From contig VYFB01000068.1 of the NCBI GenBank assembly GCA_009842645.1, positions 10,904 to 74,903 of the forward strand: a stretch of 64,000 nucleotides of DNA, written 5' to 3'. How positions within the stretch are numbered: the first letter of the stretch is position 1; every line of letters starts with the position of its first letter. This document shows, one piece after another, positions 4,913-13,961 of this stretch. A model generated the notes under the pieces. The model saw only the letters and a program-made list of their open reading frames with translations, made no database searches and was not told where the DNA came from. Origin of the DNA: Nitrospira sp. SB0677_bin_15 (GTDB taxonomy: Bacteria > Nitrospirota > Nitrospiria > Nitrospirales > UBA8639). The position numbers were made by a program, and so were the translations under genes.

Positions 4913-6489
4913 ACGGCTACTTTCTTCAGTTTTCGGGCTTTCTGCTTCGGCTTAGCCTTCTCCGCCCTGATCCGCTCCAGCAATACACTTGCAGGCTCAT
5001 CATTGGGGTCTTGCGGCACGAGCCTGCCTTCAAAGGCTTTTTTCAAAAGGCTTTGGCGGAGGGCTTCAGCTTGTTTCAGGCCATTCGCAATATCCTGTTC
5101 GAGTCTTTCGGCAGCGGAAAGGCGGGATTCGATTTGGTCGACGATTTGATTTTGCTCTGCAATCGAAGACACCGGAAATTCTAAGTTTGCCAAGCCTTTC
5201 CCAGTTAGGTGTTTTATTGTCGTGCCGGTGAAAAATTTCGATAGATGCCCATTCGAGGAAGAAAAAAGCATAAAATAATATGCAAACTTATTGGCAATTG
5301 ATTTTGTTGGAAACCTCACCCGATGAAGAGCTTTCTGAATTCGCATGTCTGAATTGCTTTGCTTCCAAATCGCGCACCTACCAGGTTCACCTCCTTCACA
5401 AATAATTAAATCTCCCGACTGTAAACCGTATCTTTCCTTTTCTGCTTCTTCAAATTTCATATTCAGCAAATCAGACAAATCAAAGCTACCCCACCTAACG
5501 TTAATATTTCGAAGGTATGGAATAGGGGTTCCGACATTCTTGGATTTATCCAACATCTTGCCTAGACAAGATTCCAGAACCATATTATGGAACCGAATCC
5601 ACGCCCACCCATCAGGCAGTTTCGGCAACTCTGATAATTCTGCTTCTGTGAGCGGTGGGAGTTCCTTGGGCTTACCGGGTTTGGTGGGTTTCTTGTCCAC
5701 TTTGCCACTGGCCTCCCACGCTTTGACGGCTCGTTTCCAGTCGTCTTGTTGTTGCCGGTAGCGTTGCTCGCGCTCGGCCTTGATTTTCTCCAGCAGCGTT
5801 TCAGCAGACTCTAACTCATCGGCATGTTTCCTGCGCCATTCTTCGGTCAGCTTACCTTCAAAAGCGTTTTTCAGGATCGCCTGACGATAGACTATTAACT
5901 GCTCGCGGGCCATTTTGAAAGATTCAATGCCCTTGTCCAGTTCTGATAACAGTTCTTCGAGTTTGGAAACGATGCGCCGTTGTTCAGGGAGAGGGGGTAC
6001 TGGAAGAGGGATCTGTTTTAATTTGTTTGCATTTACGTTTGGTACAGCGATTCCGAGCTTCTTCTCCGATATTTCCCGCCAATAAAGAGGACTATCTAGA
6101 AAATACTTGAAGAACTTCTTGTCTATATATGGACGGAATCTGATGAGATAAGATGCAAATACAGAGTCCTCTGGTTTCTCTAGGAGATAGCTAAAACCTA
6201 CTGAACCGGCACGAGAAATAACGATGTCCCCTTCTTTGAGTAGATATTTCTCTGGGTCAGCGGGATTAGTTGAACAAAACGGGACCAAATTCCAGTCTAT
6301 CTTTCCTCTTGTAATATCTGTCGTTCTAAGAAGTTTCAGATCCCCCTTATCGCTCGCTTTTGTCGTATATCCATATTGCAGCTGTGAGCATAAGTTACTA
6401 ATTTTGCTTATGCACCACTCTTTTGGGAACTTATACGATTCTATTTTTGAATCATCATGCCGCAACGTTTGATTATCCTCACCCATCAT
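4909..6489 (-). CDS. hsdS: Type I R-M specificity subunit
   Basis: 526 aa. Two target-recognition halves, each ending in a conserved helix (LPEQRRIVSKLEELLSEL... / IAEQNQIVDQIESRLS...LLKKAFEGRL). Visibly AT-rich. ATGA overlap with the hsdR stop. Confidence 0.88.
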   Translation of the reverse strand: MMGEDNQTLRHDDSKIESYKFPKEWCISKISNLCSQLQYGYTTKASDKGDLKLLRTTDITRGKIDWNLVPFCSTNPADPEKYLLKEGDIVISRAGSVGFSYLLEKPEDSVFASYLIRFRPYIDKKFFKYFLDSPLYWREISEKKLGIAVPNVNANKLKQIPLPVPPLPEQRRIVSKLEELLSELDKGIESFKMAREQLIVYRQAILKNAFEGKLTEEWRRKHADELESAETLLEKIKAEREQRYRQQQDDWKRAVKAWEASGKVDKKPTKPGKPKELPPLTEAELSELPKLPDGWAWIRFHNMVLESCLGKMLDKSKNVGTPIPYLRNINVRWGSFDLSDLLNMKFEEAEKERYGLQSGDLIICEGGEPGRCAIWKQSNSDMRIQKALHRVRFPTKSIANKFAYYFMLFSSSNGHLSKFFTGTTIKHLTGKGLANLEFPVSSIAEQNQIVDQIESRLSAAERLEQDIANGLKQAEALRQSLLKKAFEGRLVPQDPNDEPASVLLERIRAEKAKPKQKARKLKKVAV

Positions 6490-10306: not shown

Positions 10307-10657
10307 ATGAACAATCAAAAGACGTGTCAGGCTTGCGGGCATGAATTGGCTGCGGAGGCTCGTTTTTGTACGAGTTGCGGGAGGCGGCTGGTTCAGAAGT
10401 CGCAGACTGAGACTCGGGCCAAGGAGATCCTCAACCTTCGGATCTTGTACGCCATGGCGGGGCTGTTGGTGTTGGCCGTGCTGTTTCCGCCGTGGGAGTC
10501 GTCGCCCGGTTCGCCTCCTGCCTATTTGGGTATGCATTTCATCCTGTCTCCCCCGGAGCCTGAGGCCGTGGTGAGTCGCATCCTCCAGACCGTGGAACTG
10601 GTGACGATCGCTATTGGCGGGATGTATTTGGCTTGGGTGTTTCGGGACAAGGTCTGA
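10307..10657 (+). CDS. Zinc-ribbon membrane protein
   Basis: CQACGHELAAEARFCTSCG double-CxxC ribbon followed by two hydrophobic segments. ATG at 10307. Confidence 0.6.
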   Translation: MNNQKTCQACGHELAAEARFCTSCGRRLVQKSQTETRAKEILNLRILYAMAGLLVLAVLFPPWESSPGSPPAYLGMHFILSPPEPEAVVSRILQTVELVTIAIGGMYLAWVFRDKV

Positions 10658-10664
10658 GAAAGTT

Positions 10665-10702
10665 CCCCCTCACCCCAGCCCTCTCCCTCGTTGGGGAGAG
10701 GG
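10665..10702. repeat. Family A hairpin repeat (copy A2)
   Basis: ccccctcaccccagccctctccctcgttggggagaggg, starting 8 nt after the zinc-ribbon gene stop. Same orientation as A1. Confidence 0.8.
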
Positions 10703-10747
10703 TGTGAATGCCTCTACCCCACCTGACCTCCCCTTACAAAGGGGAGG
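10703..10747. repeat. Family C repeat (copy 1)
   Basis: gaatgcctctaccccacctgacctccccttacaaaggggagg. The reverse complement is similar to 44790-44837. Confidence 0.6.
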
Positions 10748-10757
10748 AAATAACGGA

Positions 10758-11138
10758 CTACTGAAACATCGCCTGCATCTGCGGCGGTCTCTTGATGATT
10801 TTCCCCTTGGCGTCGATGGTGACGAGGGTGGCTGATCCTTCGACGATCAGGCGTTGACTGGTTGTTTCCCGGATCACGTGGGAGAAGGTGATGGCGGTTT
10901 TTCGGGATGCCGAGGCCACCGTTTCGACGTGGAGGGTTTCTCCATAATGCGCCGCCGAGCGGTAAGAGATTTCCGCATGGGTGACCAAAAAGTAGATGCC
11001 TTGCCGTTGAAATTCCGCGACCGAAATTCCGTGTGTGAGCAGGTATTCGGTCCTCGCCCGTTCAAAATATTTGAGGTAGTTGGCGTAATACACCACGCCG
11101 CCGCAGTCGGTGTCCTCATAATAGATTTTGACGTTCAC
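10758..11138 (-). CDS. Acyl-CoA thioesterase, 4HBT/YbgC family
   Basis: VNVKIYYEDTDCGGVVYYANYLKYFERAR...LVTHAEISY is the hot-dog fold thioesterase signature. Start set at GTG 11136-11138, just after the CARF gene stop; the track's longer ORF overlaps that gene. Confidence 0.75.
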   Translation of the reverse strand: MNVKIYYEDTDCGGVVYYANYLKYFERARTEYLLTHGISVAEFQRQGIYFLVTHAEISYRSAAHYGETLHVETVASASRKTAITFSHVIRETTSQRLIVEGSATLVTIDAKGKIIKRPPQMQAMFQ

Positions 11139-11143
11139 CGGCG

Positions 11144-12433
11144 TTACAGCGTCATCTTCGGGAAGACCGGCAAGTTGGAGTCGGTGACGTTGGTCAGTTT
11201 GATGGCCGCGGCATAGAACTGATGAAACCGGTCGGCTTTCGTGGTGTGAAACCCATGGCCCAGGACGCTCTGATGGGCCGCATCCCACAGCGTTTTGAGC
11301 TTGGTCCACTCGTTGACGAAGGTTTGCCCCATGGGATGCCCCAGCCCTGACAGGGCGCGAAATTGGGCATGAAGCGGCAGGTGAAACTTGCCGTCCACGT
11401 CGCTGCTATAACAGGTCCGGCAGGCTTCCTGCAGATCCTTCGGCAATTGGTCAACCTGTACGTCCCAACTCTTGATGCGATACTGTTTCCACAAGTGGTA
11501 CTGGGCATAAGCTTCCAAGGCTCGCAGCAACAGTTGGAGGGCAGAGTCGATTTGCTGCTCTCCGGCACGCCGTTTGGCATGGGCAAGCAGATCATGCGCC
11601 ACGGGAAGCTTGACGTCATCGGGGTCCATGACGATGCTTTCCAAAAATTTCAGGTTGTGTTTGACCCTGGACAGTAGTGATGACATGCCGGCCGGCCCAT
11701 CCCAGACCGAGGCCAACTCCAAGGCCTTGTGCGCGGTTTTGAGTTTGTCCCAGGCGTCCCGGTACTTGAAGCTTTCCCAGGCGGCATAGCCGTCGGCTAA
11801 ATCTGCGAGGCCGTGATACAGCGGTTTGAGGCTTCCCCCGACCAACGATTCAATGCGTCGAAACCGTTTGGCTGCCGATGAGAACCCTCCTTGATTGAAT
11901 AACAGGGCTGCTTCCTGCCGTGCCGGTACGGCTTCTTCGTTCCAGGGGTTTCCTTCCTGCCAGGCGAAGGCCCGGTCTCCGGCCTCGATCACGTCACTCC
12001 CTTCGACTCCGCTCAGGACAGGCAGGGCAGGCTTGCCCGTGCCGCTTCCTGGCGCGGTCAAGCCGACGACTTGCGACATCCACGGCCTGCAGGCGAGCAC
12101 CATTGCTGCGGCAATGGCCGGCGTGGTCCGGCTGAAGTCCACGACAAGCTCTCCGGGTTGCAGGCCCCAGGTCTTCAGCATCTCGGGAAGGCTCCTGGTT
12201 AGCGTTTGATGGACCGCGGTAAAACTCTCGGACTCTTCCGCAAAAATCCAATCCCACCGTTGCGGCATGGTGGTGATGGCCGGTTGAACTTCGGTTTCGA
12301 TGGAGCCTTTTCGGGACTCGGAGACGACGAAACAGAGAAACTCCGGGGCGAGCCGGTTGATGCAGGCTTGCACCGGAATAGGGTCCTCTGACACTGCGAT
12401 GAGTAAGGCTTTGGTCCGATATTCCCCGCTCAT
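11144..12433 (-). CDS. Orphan CARF-domain protein, TIGR02710-like (CARF + HEPN-like helical domain)
   Basis: N-terminal Rossmann-like ALLIAVSEDPIPVQACINRLAPEFLCFVVSE. C-terminal AKRRAGEQQIDSALQLLLRALEAYAQYHL ... HQSVLGHGF resembles the Cas02710 family. Start set at ATG 12431-12433 (MSGEYRT); upstream ORF sequence is repeat-derived. Confidence 0.55.
   Translation of the reverse strand: MSGEYRTKALLIAVSEDPIPVQACINRLAPEFLCFVVSESRKGSIETEVQPAITTMPQRWDWIFAEESESFTAVHQTLTRSLPEMLKTWGLQPGELVVDFSRTTPAIAAAMVLACRPWMSQVVGLTAPGSGTGKPALPVLSGVEGSDVIEAGDRAFAWQEGNPWNEEAVPARQEAALLFNQGGFSSAAKRFRRIESLVGGSLKPLYHGLADLADGYAAWESFKYRDAWDKLKTAHKALELASVWDGPAGMSSLLSRVKHNLKFLESIVMDPDDVKLPVAHDLLAHAKRRAGEQQIDSALQLLLRALEAYAQYHLWKQYRIKSWDVQVDQLPKDLQEACRTCYSSDVDGKFHLPLHAQFRALSGLGHPMGQTFVNEWTKLKTLWDAAHQSVLGHGFHTTKADRFHQFYAAAIKLTNVTDSNLPVFPKMTL
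11999..12032. repeat. Collapsed family I repeat lying in frame inside the CARF CDS
   Basis: cccttcgactccgctcaggacaggcagggcaggc, encoding ...PALPVLSGVEGSD... Shares the cttcgactcc / gctcaggacagg / cagggcaggc blocks with 12501-12579 and 51727-51785. Confidence 0.6.
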
Positions 12434-12500
12434 GACCGCGAAACTATACCATCGCCTTCCGGCAAACTCCAAGCGCCGACTGTGTAGGGGACGGCCCCGT

Positions 12501-12665
12501 GCCTGCCCTGACCCTTCGACTCCAGGCGCAGGGCAACTTACGCCCTTTGACAAGCTCAGGACAGGCTCAGGGTGAACGGAGAGGGGGCCATACAACGATT
12601 TCAGTTTGGCGGTTCCCTCCCTCCGTTCGCCCTGAGCGTAGCGATAGCGAAGTCGAAGGGTGCCG
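12501..12665. repeat. Composite family I + family H repeat (copy 1)
   Basis: gcctgccctgacccttcgactccaggcgc...gctcaggacagg, then ...cctgagcgtagcgatagcgaagtcgaagg. Same composite at 51727-51850. Confidence 0.7.
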
Positions 12666-12914
12666 TCCCGAATTGGCCGGAAGGCAGGTACAGGGACCTG
12701 TTCTTATAGCTCCCCACCGGTTCGCCGGCGGGCTGCGCCCTTGGCTCCCCGACTCCCCCTCAAGGGGGGAGTGATGAAGACAGGGGTAATTTTATAGACC
12801 AATAGGTATAATATAGTTGAGATTTAGGAAGTAGTGGGCCTAGAATCGCTTCTGGCCGTTTCGGCATGAAAGAAGAAACGTTGTTTGTCAGGACCAACAT
12901 TCGTTGGGTTGCCG

Positions 12915-13961
12915 ATGCAGAAAAACATTCCAGTGGTTGATGATGATCCAGACGCCGTGTTCCGCGAGGACGTCGATTCACGGTACGGCACCATCGTAGC
13001 GGACACGCCGGCCATGGCGTCTCTCGTTGCATTGATCAAACGGGCAGCGGATTCGGATGCCACCGTGCTGTTGCTGGGAGAAAGCGGGACGGGCAAGGAA
13101 CTCTTTGCCAGGTCCATCCATCAATGGAGCAGGCGGATTGAGAATCCCTTCGTCGTGCTCAATTGTGTGGCCCTGACCGAGACCCTGCTCGAAAACGAAT
13201 TGTTCGGTCACGAAAAAGGCGCGTTCACGGGCGCGACCGCGCAACAAAAAGGCAAGGTCGAACTGGCCGATAACGGCACCCTCTTTCTGGACGAGATCGG
13301 GGACATGGCACTGGACCTGCAAGCCAAATTGTTGCGTCTTCTACAGGACCGGGAATTTCACCGCGTAGGCGGGACGCACTTGGTTCAGGTCAACATCCGG
13401 GTCATCGCCGCGACGAACTGCGATCTGTCAAAGGCTGTGAGAGAAGGCAAGTTCCGTGAGGACTTATTTCATCGGTTAAACGTGATCAGTTTTTCCATAC
13501 CTCCCTTACGAGACCGACCCGATGAGATTCCTCATTTGGCCGGCCTGTTCTTCCGGCGCTATACCAAGGAGATGGGAAAGCCGGGCATGCGGCTGACGGA
13601 AGCCGCCCTCGGGGCCATGCAGCGGTACCGGTGGCCGGGCAACGTGCGGGAATTGGAGAACGCCGTGGCCCGGGCCGTGGTCCTGTCCACGGACCGCGAA
13701 ATTGGTCCCGAGCATTTACGTCTCCCACAGGATTACGAAGCAAAGTCCCAAGTTCATGAAGAGGAGCCCCAGGTCAGGGAGTCCGGCGCGTTGCTCTACC
13801 ATCAGGCCATGGAACGGTATCGCTATTTTCTGATTGAACAGGCGCTGAAACGCACTCACGGCAACCAGACCAAGGCTGCCGAAGCGCTCGGACTTCAGCG
13901 CTCCTACCTCGCGCGCGTTCTCAAACAGAAACAGGCAGAAAATCGCAAAAACGAGAAGTAG
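12915..13961 (+). CDS. Sigma-54-dependent transcriptional activator lacking a receiver domain
   Basis: AAA+ core [20 protein letters not shown] loop (EKGAFTGA), and a C-terminal Fis-type HTH ([17 protein letters not shown]). Only ~35 aa precede the AAA+ domain. ATG at 12915. Confidence 0.85.

Follow-up and report, generated by a model that had tools for sequence, protein, structure and literature searches.

What does a Csm6-like protein do once it stands outside any CRISPR locus and no longer carries the residues by which its family senses cyclic nucleotides and cuts RNA? The question is raised by a gene in a 64,000-nucleotide (nt) stretch of contig VYFB01000068.1 of Nitrospira sp. SB0677_bin_15 (positions 10,904 to 74,903; hereafter the window), part of a 2.55-Mb genome that is 99% complete. 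A first-pass annotation of this stretch had described the product as an orphan CARF protein of the TIGR02710 type with an arginine-less HEPN motif, and had suggested a cyclic-oligonucleotide sensor repurposed for a non-nuclease output. The analysis reported here makes it probable, with a good degree of confidence on our part, that the protein is an exapted, catalytically dead derivative of Csm6 with a non-defense, probably non-catalytic role.

The gene starts with the ATG at 12433 on the minus strand, and its frame of 429 codons ends at a TAA at 11144-11146. The same ATG start and the same N terminus, MSGEYRTKALL, are common to the protein and 12 of 12 orthologs; a longer open reading frame (ORF) from a TTG at 12595 is an artifact, its spurious N-terminal extension being made by a composite repeat directly upstream. 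The family assignment of the first-pass annotation is confirmed on several counts. In a profile search the protein scores 115.7 bits against TIGR02710, for a cut-off of 83.9, and Pfam recognizes both the HEPN domain of Csm6 (PF09670, residues 280-415, E value 2.6e-19, 69.9 bits for a cut-off of 27) and its 6H domain (PF22205, Csm6_6H, residues 172-264, E value 2.4e-12, 47.2 bits for a cut-off of 27.6), while the PADLOC profile CARF1--CARF_HEPN covers the full-length protein with 525 bits. A phmmer search of the PDB with the single sequence returned no relevant match. An AlphaFold2 model, built on a multiple sequence alignment of 24 homologs (mean predicted local distance difference test score, pLDDT, 84), displays a Rossmann-like N terminus followed by all-helical domains. 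When the PDB is searched with it by Foldseek, structures of Thermus thermophilus Csm6 (TtCsm6, TTHB152) rank first, namely 8JH1, 8JBC, 5FSH and 8JBB (E value ~1e-11, ~450 columns, 17-18% identity), with which it shares the layout of CARF, six-helix/helix-turn-helix and HEPN domains. Other Csm6 proteins and CARF-only proteins come next in the ranking, the structures of Cam1, Can2 and Sso2081 matching the part formed by residues 1-128. Model and fold search thus reveal the three-domain CARF/6H/HEPN fold, and by score the protein is a TIGR02710-type CARF-HEPN protein. The gene and its domains are as follows.

11144..12433, minus strand: disarmed Csm6-like gene, with degenerate CARF, 6H and degenerate HEPN domains; 429 residues, the stop codon lying within the coordinates; recognized by TIGR02710, Pfam, PADLOC, the fold match and substitution rates.

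12050..12433, minus strand: residues 1-128, a CARF-like Rossmann domain with degenerate signature motifs, strands and helices alternating from E9-13 to E119-126 in the AlphaFold2 model.

11642..11920, minus strand: Csm6 6H helical middle domain, residues 172-264 (PF22205), with helices over 168-268 in the model.

11189..11596, minus strand: HEPN-like domain, residues 280-415 (PF09670), lacking the catalytic Arg and Asn.

When 1.8 billion representative proteins were searched with a profile, 2115 relatives came back, from which 116 full-length representatives were aligned; in a later comparison of residues, 119 close members of the clade were set against 109 canonical representatives. Two signature motifs of the CARF domain are degenerate in our protein.

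12377..12397, minus strand: position of CARF motif I, residues 13-19, AVSEDPI in place of (S/T)VGG(S/T)P, from the alignment to the 109 canonical representatives.

12119..12139, minus strand: position of CARF motif II, residues 99-105, DFSRTTP in place of DxTGGTK, from the family alignment; it lies opposite DLTSGTK137 of TtCsm6.

In the canonical set, motif I has G15 in 107 of 109 sequences, G16 in 98 and a Ser or Thr at position 17 in 93, where our protein reads S-E-D; the motif is variable across the clade. The GG(S/T)P stretch that corresponds to G58-T59-S60 of TtCsm6 is absent from our protein, the equivalence being judged from its place after strand 1 and not from a direct alignment. In TtCsm6, the double mutant T59A/S60A in motif I abolishes both the cleavage of cyclic tetra-adenylate (cA4) and RNA degradation (PMC10897365). 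The Lys of motif II, found in 108 of the 109 canonical sequences, is a Pro in 95% of the 119 clade members, and P105 of our protein lies opposite K137 of TtCsm6 in an alignment made with a mixed profile. K137A in TtCsm6 completely loses cA4 binding, and RNase activation with it (PMC10897365). In addition, G16 and G103 are lost relative to the canonical proteins, and Y161 of TtCsm6 aligns opposite G124, at a position where Tyr is strongly conserved in the canonical set.

The HEPN domain has fared no better at its RNase site.

11252..11278, minus strand: degenerate R-X4-6-H stretch A386-H387-Q-S-V-L-G-H393-G394, from the family alignments and the alignment to TtCsm6.

The canonical motif consists of R (109 of 109 representatives), N (108 of 109), xSILA, H (109 of 109) and G. 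As the first-pass annotation had noted, our protein lacks the Arg, with A386 in its place opposite R415 of TtCsm6; the Asn is gone as well, replaced by H387, and H393 is kept. In the clade, Ala occupies the Arg position in 90% of the 119 members, with the motif His in 93% and G394 in 100%. A profile of the clade alone reached TtCsm6 only to profile position 304, and the alignment of the HEPN motif, in which GR415-N416-SALLV-H422-G lies opposite A386-H387-QSVLG-H393-G, took the mixed profile. Each of R415A, N416A and H422A abolishes the RNase activity of TtCsm6 (PMC10897365). Other canonical HEPN positions have gone too (N285, D297, R301 and Y303), a His being present in 96% of the clade at position 285, where the canonical set has an Asn that is 98% conserved. 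What our protein has in common with TtCsm6 and the TIGR02710 family is a core made of D281, R288, R289 and E307, the structural residues W219 and NPW 162-164, and the H393-G394 pair; what it lacks are equivalents of K137, Y161, the GG(S/T)P of motif I, R415 and N416. Because the lost residues match those whose mutants have published defects in TtCsm6, by the rules of its own family neither cA4 binding nor RNA cleavage is to be expected of the protein.

The motif-less proteins share a common history. In a maximum-likelihood tree they form one side of a branch with a Shimodaira-Hasegawa-like approximate likelihood ratio test (SH-aLRT) value of 100, and all 109 canonical representatives lie on the other. 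The tree is unrooted; when it is read after rooting on a canonical tip, partly degenerate members branch first, among them P0128, which still has the Arg and the Lys, and a Nitrospiria lineage in which GGSP and the Asn are still present. The search for related loci recovered no genome locus for P0128. The gene is not in decay: the pairwise ratio of nonsynonymous to synonymous substitution rates (dN/dS) between our gene and 12 orthologs is 0.15-0.26, and by region it is 0.13-0.33 in the CARF domain, 0.11-0.25 in 6H, 0.12-0.21 in HEPN and up to 0.69 in the linker. A pseudogene is ruled out by these values, by the intact frames of the 12 orthologs and by the variants of a small insert in the gene, which are all in frame. 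Moreover, a set of residues is invariant in the clade only, namely W60, W62, H285, K321, W323, C338, Q357, W376, R402 (100%), Q405 and a WGGPxG loop at 244-249, and this pattern points to new functional surfaces, not plain decay. In the region of the CARF pocket, W60, D61, W62, D99 and T104 are invariant in the clade. Two oddities among the orthologs may be recorded here. One, in a 16-Mb assembly (G084:C19:2787216-2788366), is broken by a single TAG into two matches, which may point to a pseudogene or to a fault of the assembly. Four others (L035, L101, L103 and L125) lie on contigs binned in metagenome-assembled genomes of Nitrospinota, Azonexus, Prosthecobacter and Rhodocyclaceae, with 39-63% identity to the Nitrospirales queries, and could be mis-binned Nitrospira contigs or cases of transfer.

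How widespread is the gene, and does it follow type III CRISPR systems? Of 151 sampled Nitrospirales genomes, 134 have it, among them 128 of the 142 that are of high quality; it occurs in 26 of 27 genera, and the copy number is almost always one. Cas10, searched for with three profiles, is rare in the same sample: Csm1 was found in six genomes and Cmr2 above its cut-off in four more, and the palm domain of Cas10 scored above cut-off in 12, ten of which have full-size Cas10 ORFs. At least 122 of the sampled genomes thus have the gene and no Cas10 recognizable by these profiles, and 124 of the 134 show no full-size Cas10. No cas genes were seen within 6-8 kb in any neighborhood examined, so no association with type III loci emerged. 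Two Cas10-bearing genomes (G042 and G132) have an extra, intact TIGR02710 paralog with SVGGS.EP, DFTGGTK and RNxSxLAHG motifs, in G042 at 18 kb from Cmr2, and both keep the disarmed gene elsewhere. The Nitrospirales gene differs from that of TtCsm6 in standing away from cas genes, as a vertically inherited, single-copy gene of an order whose genomes mostly show no Cas10. The suggestion of a cyclic oligoadenylate (cOA) sensor is not supported by these results, with both CARF signature motifs lost, a Pro at the position of K137, and a full-size Cas10 seen in so few of the genomes. A non-nuclease role, on the other hand, is likely, as had been proposed, because the protein is without the catalytic Arg and Asn and its gene lies outside any CRISPR locus.

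In the reading that we favor, an ancestral lineage of type III Csm6 would have left the CRISPR loci, and the motifs would have been lost in one lineage, as tree and distribution suggest. The disarmed lineage would have settled at a fixed chromosomal site, between a divergent gene pair for a gmhA-like isomerase and a GSU2086-family protein on one side and a ybgC-like thioesterase gene on the other, and would have been inherited vertically through the Nitrospirales. The result would be a single-copy, nearly core but dispensable gene, with purifying selection on all three of its domains. The CARF pocket has lost the residues that bind and cleave cA4 (the GG(S/T)P of motif I, the Lys of motif II and the Tyr at the Y161 position), and the HEPN domain the Arg and Asn of its R-X4-6-H RNase site. 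The present protein, a probable homodimer like Csm6, would probably act non-catalytically, binding or scaffolding RNA, another protein or some new small ligand, which it may contact through the newly conserved surfaces (W60, W62, H285, K321, W323, W376, R402, Q405 and the WGGPxG loop), and its action would be independent of cOA signaling and of the type III-A system of its genome.

Several points weigh against this account. Its positive part, the function, is something that we only infer. In 17 of the 151 genomes, five of them in the same genus, no copy of the gene was found, and its role is therefore dispensable. The counts of Cas10 in this sample rest on three profiles, and the notion of loss rests on motifs shared with TtCsm6, the tree being unrooted. 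Purifying selection still acts on the CARF domain, whose predicted third strand (E59-64) has invariant Trp residues, and for this reason the domain may bind a different ligand. Finally, H393 is kept in 93% of the clade, and H285 (96%) and R402 (100%) are newly conserved; because of their conservation, these three residues may form an alternative catalytic arrangement.

The last point leads to the first of the competing explanations, that the protein is still an RNase with a rebuilt HEPN site, in which H393 together with the clade-specific H285, R402 or K321 would replace the Arg and Asn. The near-universal H393-G394 pair, the displacement of a highly conserved Asn by H285, the restriction of invariant R402, K321 and Q405 to the clade and the low dN/dS of the HEPN domain are all consistent with it. 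So is the existence of HEPN families with alternative residues or with the His only: the R-X4-6-H motif is lost or partial in MtlR, in the HEPN domain of Swt1 and in HEPN-T/PaREP1, described as "lacks R but H is conserved" (Anantharaman et al. 2013, PMC3710099). However, in TtCsm6 either R415A or N416A alone is enough to kill the activity and in our protein both residues are replaced, the family-conserved D297, R301 and Y303 have gone as well, and H393 itself is a Tyr, Gln or Gly in some members, all of which makes a rebuilt RNase unlikely. Non-catalytic roles in RNA binding or regulation have been proposed for these same families (PMC3710099), which resemble our protein in keeping the HEPN fold without the catalytic Arg, although they are different HEPN families.

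A second explanation turns on the gene downstream.

10758..11138, minus strand: YbgC/FadM-type 4HBT acyl-CoA (acyl-coenzyme A) thioesterase of 126 residues with a GTG start at 11138 (TIGR00051, Pfam 4HBT_2 and 4HBT).

As first described, this gene follows the TAA of the CARF-HEPN gene after a spacer of 5 nt, and the two are probably co-transcribed in the source genome; a scan for promoters and terminators over 10550-12900 found nothing on the minus strand above the level of shuffled sequence. The product is a member of the same hot-dog 4HBT fold family as the YbgC/FadM thioesterases, scoring 89.4 bits against TIGR00051 (cut-off 68.7), and its N terminus carries the YYEDTD stretch that is typical of YbgC. 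It differs from YbgC in that it scores 107.5 bits against TIGR02799, below the cut-off of 141.35 for the tol-pal-associated equivalog, and in that its gene is not beside tolQRAB-pal, the MotA/ExbB-family genes being on contigs C12 and C18. It is the sole TIGR00051 match in the source genome.

Could the CARF-HEPN protein be a small-molecule sensor, of cOA, another adenine nucleotide or a coenzyme A (CoA) derivative, that controls this thioesterase? The linkage itself is real: of 80 related loci, 64 have the thioesterase gene downstream in the same orientation, down to 49% identity of the CARF-HEPN protein, at a spacing of 5-20 nt in the closest relatives of the window and in several more distant loci. 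In addition, four of the five same-genus genomes without the CARF-HEPN gene are also without the thioesterase, and the pocket residues W60, D61, W62, D99 and T104 are invariant. Against this, the gap widens to 46-556 nt in most Nitrospiraceae and to 1.4-1.9 kb in four loci, the joint loss of adjacent genes can be a single deletion, and the cOA-binding Lys is absent. Among the 16 loci without the thioesterase, six have less than 0.7 kb of downstream sequence, two have a remnant only and eight have none; four complete genomes of the same genus (G061, G070, G092 and G140) keep the CARF-HEPN gene and have no thioesterase match anywhere, and in G014 the thioesterase is kept directly beside the isomerase gene after a clean deletion of the CARF-HEPN gene. 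The pair is thus not obligatory. Furthermore, the thioesterase looks like the only YbgC homolog of its genome and is therefore probably a housekeeping enzyme. Of the first-pass idea the linkage stands; the case for the thioesterase as the output is weak, a sensor-effector relation is possible but unsupported, and we regard the explanation as a whole as unlikely. A type III Cas10, which few of the genomes have, is present in all four of the complete genomes without the thioesterase; these four are closely related (a branch of 67-79% identity), and the coincidence of the two traits may reflect shared ancestry only.

The rest of the neighborhood is conserved across the order. The usual arrangement is a GSU2086-family protein gene and a gene for a gmhA-like SIS isomerase, divergent, followed by the CARF-HEPN gene and then the thioesterase gene; it is also found in Ca. 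Nitrospira defluvii (FP929003.1, L104), with no cas genes in the neighborhood. The isomerase (L086, L087, L104 and most Nitrospirales loci) is 62-72% identical across the order, which exceeds the conservation of the CARF-HEPN gene, and its GSU2086-family partner matches NF052581 with 421 bits. The subclade of the window has lost the isomerase pair, and the CARF-HEPN gene therefore borders instead on genes for a sigma54 response regulator and a histidine kinase; the sigma54 activator is not adjacent to it in Nitrospiraceae. We considered whether this activator drives the operon and ruled it out, none of 79 loci having a sigma54 -24/-12 motif (TGG[CT][AG][CT]-N5-[TC]TGC[ATC]) in the 350 nt that precede the gene. 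The activator gene (12885-13961, plus strand) encodes 358 residues from a TTG and lacks most of its receiver domain, in contrast to the ortholog in a relative of 92% identity (L088), which has 460 residues and includes a Response_reg domain; the composite repeat at 12501-12665 coincides with the part that is missing.

A related proposal centers on a new ligand. Here a remodeled CARF pocket, with W60/D61/W62 and a Pro at the place of the old Lys, would bind a new ligand other than cOA, and the dimer of dead HEPN domains would relay the signal through RNA or a partner protein. We consider it improbable. If it were true, the ligand could be an adenine-containing molecule such as CoA, acyl-CoA or a dinucleoside polyphosphate, and the protein could have a housekeeping function in the nitrite-oxidizing Nitrospirales, regulating envelope or lipid metabolism together with the YbgC-like thioesterase in those genomes that have one; a CRISPR ancillary nuclease would then have been domesticated into core physiology.

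The source genome does encode a type III system of its own. The gene had been called an orphan with no CRISPR-Cas nearby, and no cas genes were indeed seen in the flanks read, about 6.5-15.8 kb of the 64-kb window. That description fails at the scale of the genome, where the search that had been suggested for type III and cyclic-oligonucleotide-based antiphage signaling (CBASS) systems came up with both a CRISPR locus and a cyclase. Contig C4 (L005:5679-18960) holds a complete type III-A locus with Csm1-5, Cas1 and an unassigned 317-residue ORF, the Cas10 (Csm1) having intact HD and GGDD motifs, and with two CARF genes of its own, TIGR02584 (NE0113-type) and TIGR02221 (TM1812-type); no repeat array was detected on this 19.4-kb contig. 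Contig C16 (L128, about 5494-5916 of the contig) encodes a cyclase of the SMODS family (CD-NTase-like), 44 bits and above the Pfam cut-off, which may belong to a CBASS-type system. As its order-wide distribution shows, the CARF-HEPN gene is independent of the type III-A system. That it should nevertheless be a working trans-encoded ancillary effector or regulator, responding to cOA made by this seemingly intact Cas10, is hardly credible, its formal match to TIGR02710 notwithstanding, given that the locus has its own two CARF genes, that most genomes with the gene show no full-size Cas10, that the Lys so important for cA4 binding is missing along with the Arg and Asn of catalysis, and that G042 and G132, which do have Cas10, carry a separate and intact paralog.

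The exapted, catalytically dead Csm6 that we favor would have a parallel outside CRISPR defense. In RtcR a CARF domain is joined to an AAA+ activator of sigma54; the domain is an exapted module of the CARF fold in a housekeeping or regulatory role, and what we propose for our protein is a similar move away from cOA signaling. The difference is that RtcR is a transcription factor without HEPN, whereas our protein keeps the whole body of Csm6 and has no fusion to a DNA-binding or AAA+ domain. We found no description of an inactive Nitrospira CARF-HEPN branch in the literature searched, whose coverage did not extend to the CARF classification of Makarova et al. 2020; in the HEPN survey, Csm6 (Cas_Cas02710) is recorded as motif-conserved, with no inactive branch noted (PMC3710099).

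One further feature of the gene is a short repeat-derived segment between the domains.

12000..12032, minus strand: in-frame insert of 33 nt encoding about PALPVLSGVEG, of genomic-repeat origin, in a disordered surface loop.

12501..12665, strand not assigned: composite repeat element, source family of the insert, directly upstream of the CARF-HEPN gene.

The insert is present and repeat-derived as first reported, with its start corrected from 11999 to 12000. Its core, CCTGAGC..GTCGAAGGG, recurs in the upstream composite repeat, which CCTGAGCGGAGTCGAAGGG of the core also matches; the repeat sequence GTCCTGAGCTTGTCAAAGGG...GGAGTCGAAGGGTCAGGGCAGGC is contained in 12434-12600. The loop that houses it (residues 130-145) has a pLDDT of 37 in the model. 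The comparison with orthologs lacking the insert, which had been proposed as a check, shows by alignment of the DNA of nine orthologs that it is absent in five (L008, L010, L012, L021 and L026) and that four (L006, L007, L015 and L018) have variants of 24-39 nt at the same site, the length always being a multiple of three.

What do these findings mean for the Nitrospirales? Proteins of this kind are named "TIGR02710 family CRISPR-associated CARF protein" in the databases, and for most Nitrospirales, which are key nitrite oxidizers, this name is misleading; with it, censuses of defense systems would count too many "orphan cOA effectors". The role of the gene can be tested in cultured species, Ca. 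N. defluvii carrying it and intact paralogs from the same order being at hand as controls. If our reading is right, this would be a clean case of a defense effector that gave up the residues for sensing and for RNA cleavage, of which partly degenerate relatives survive, and that was afterwards fixed throughout an order as a nearly core gene.

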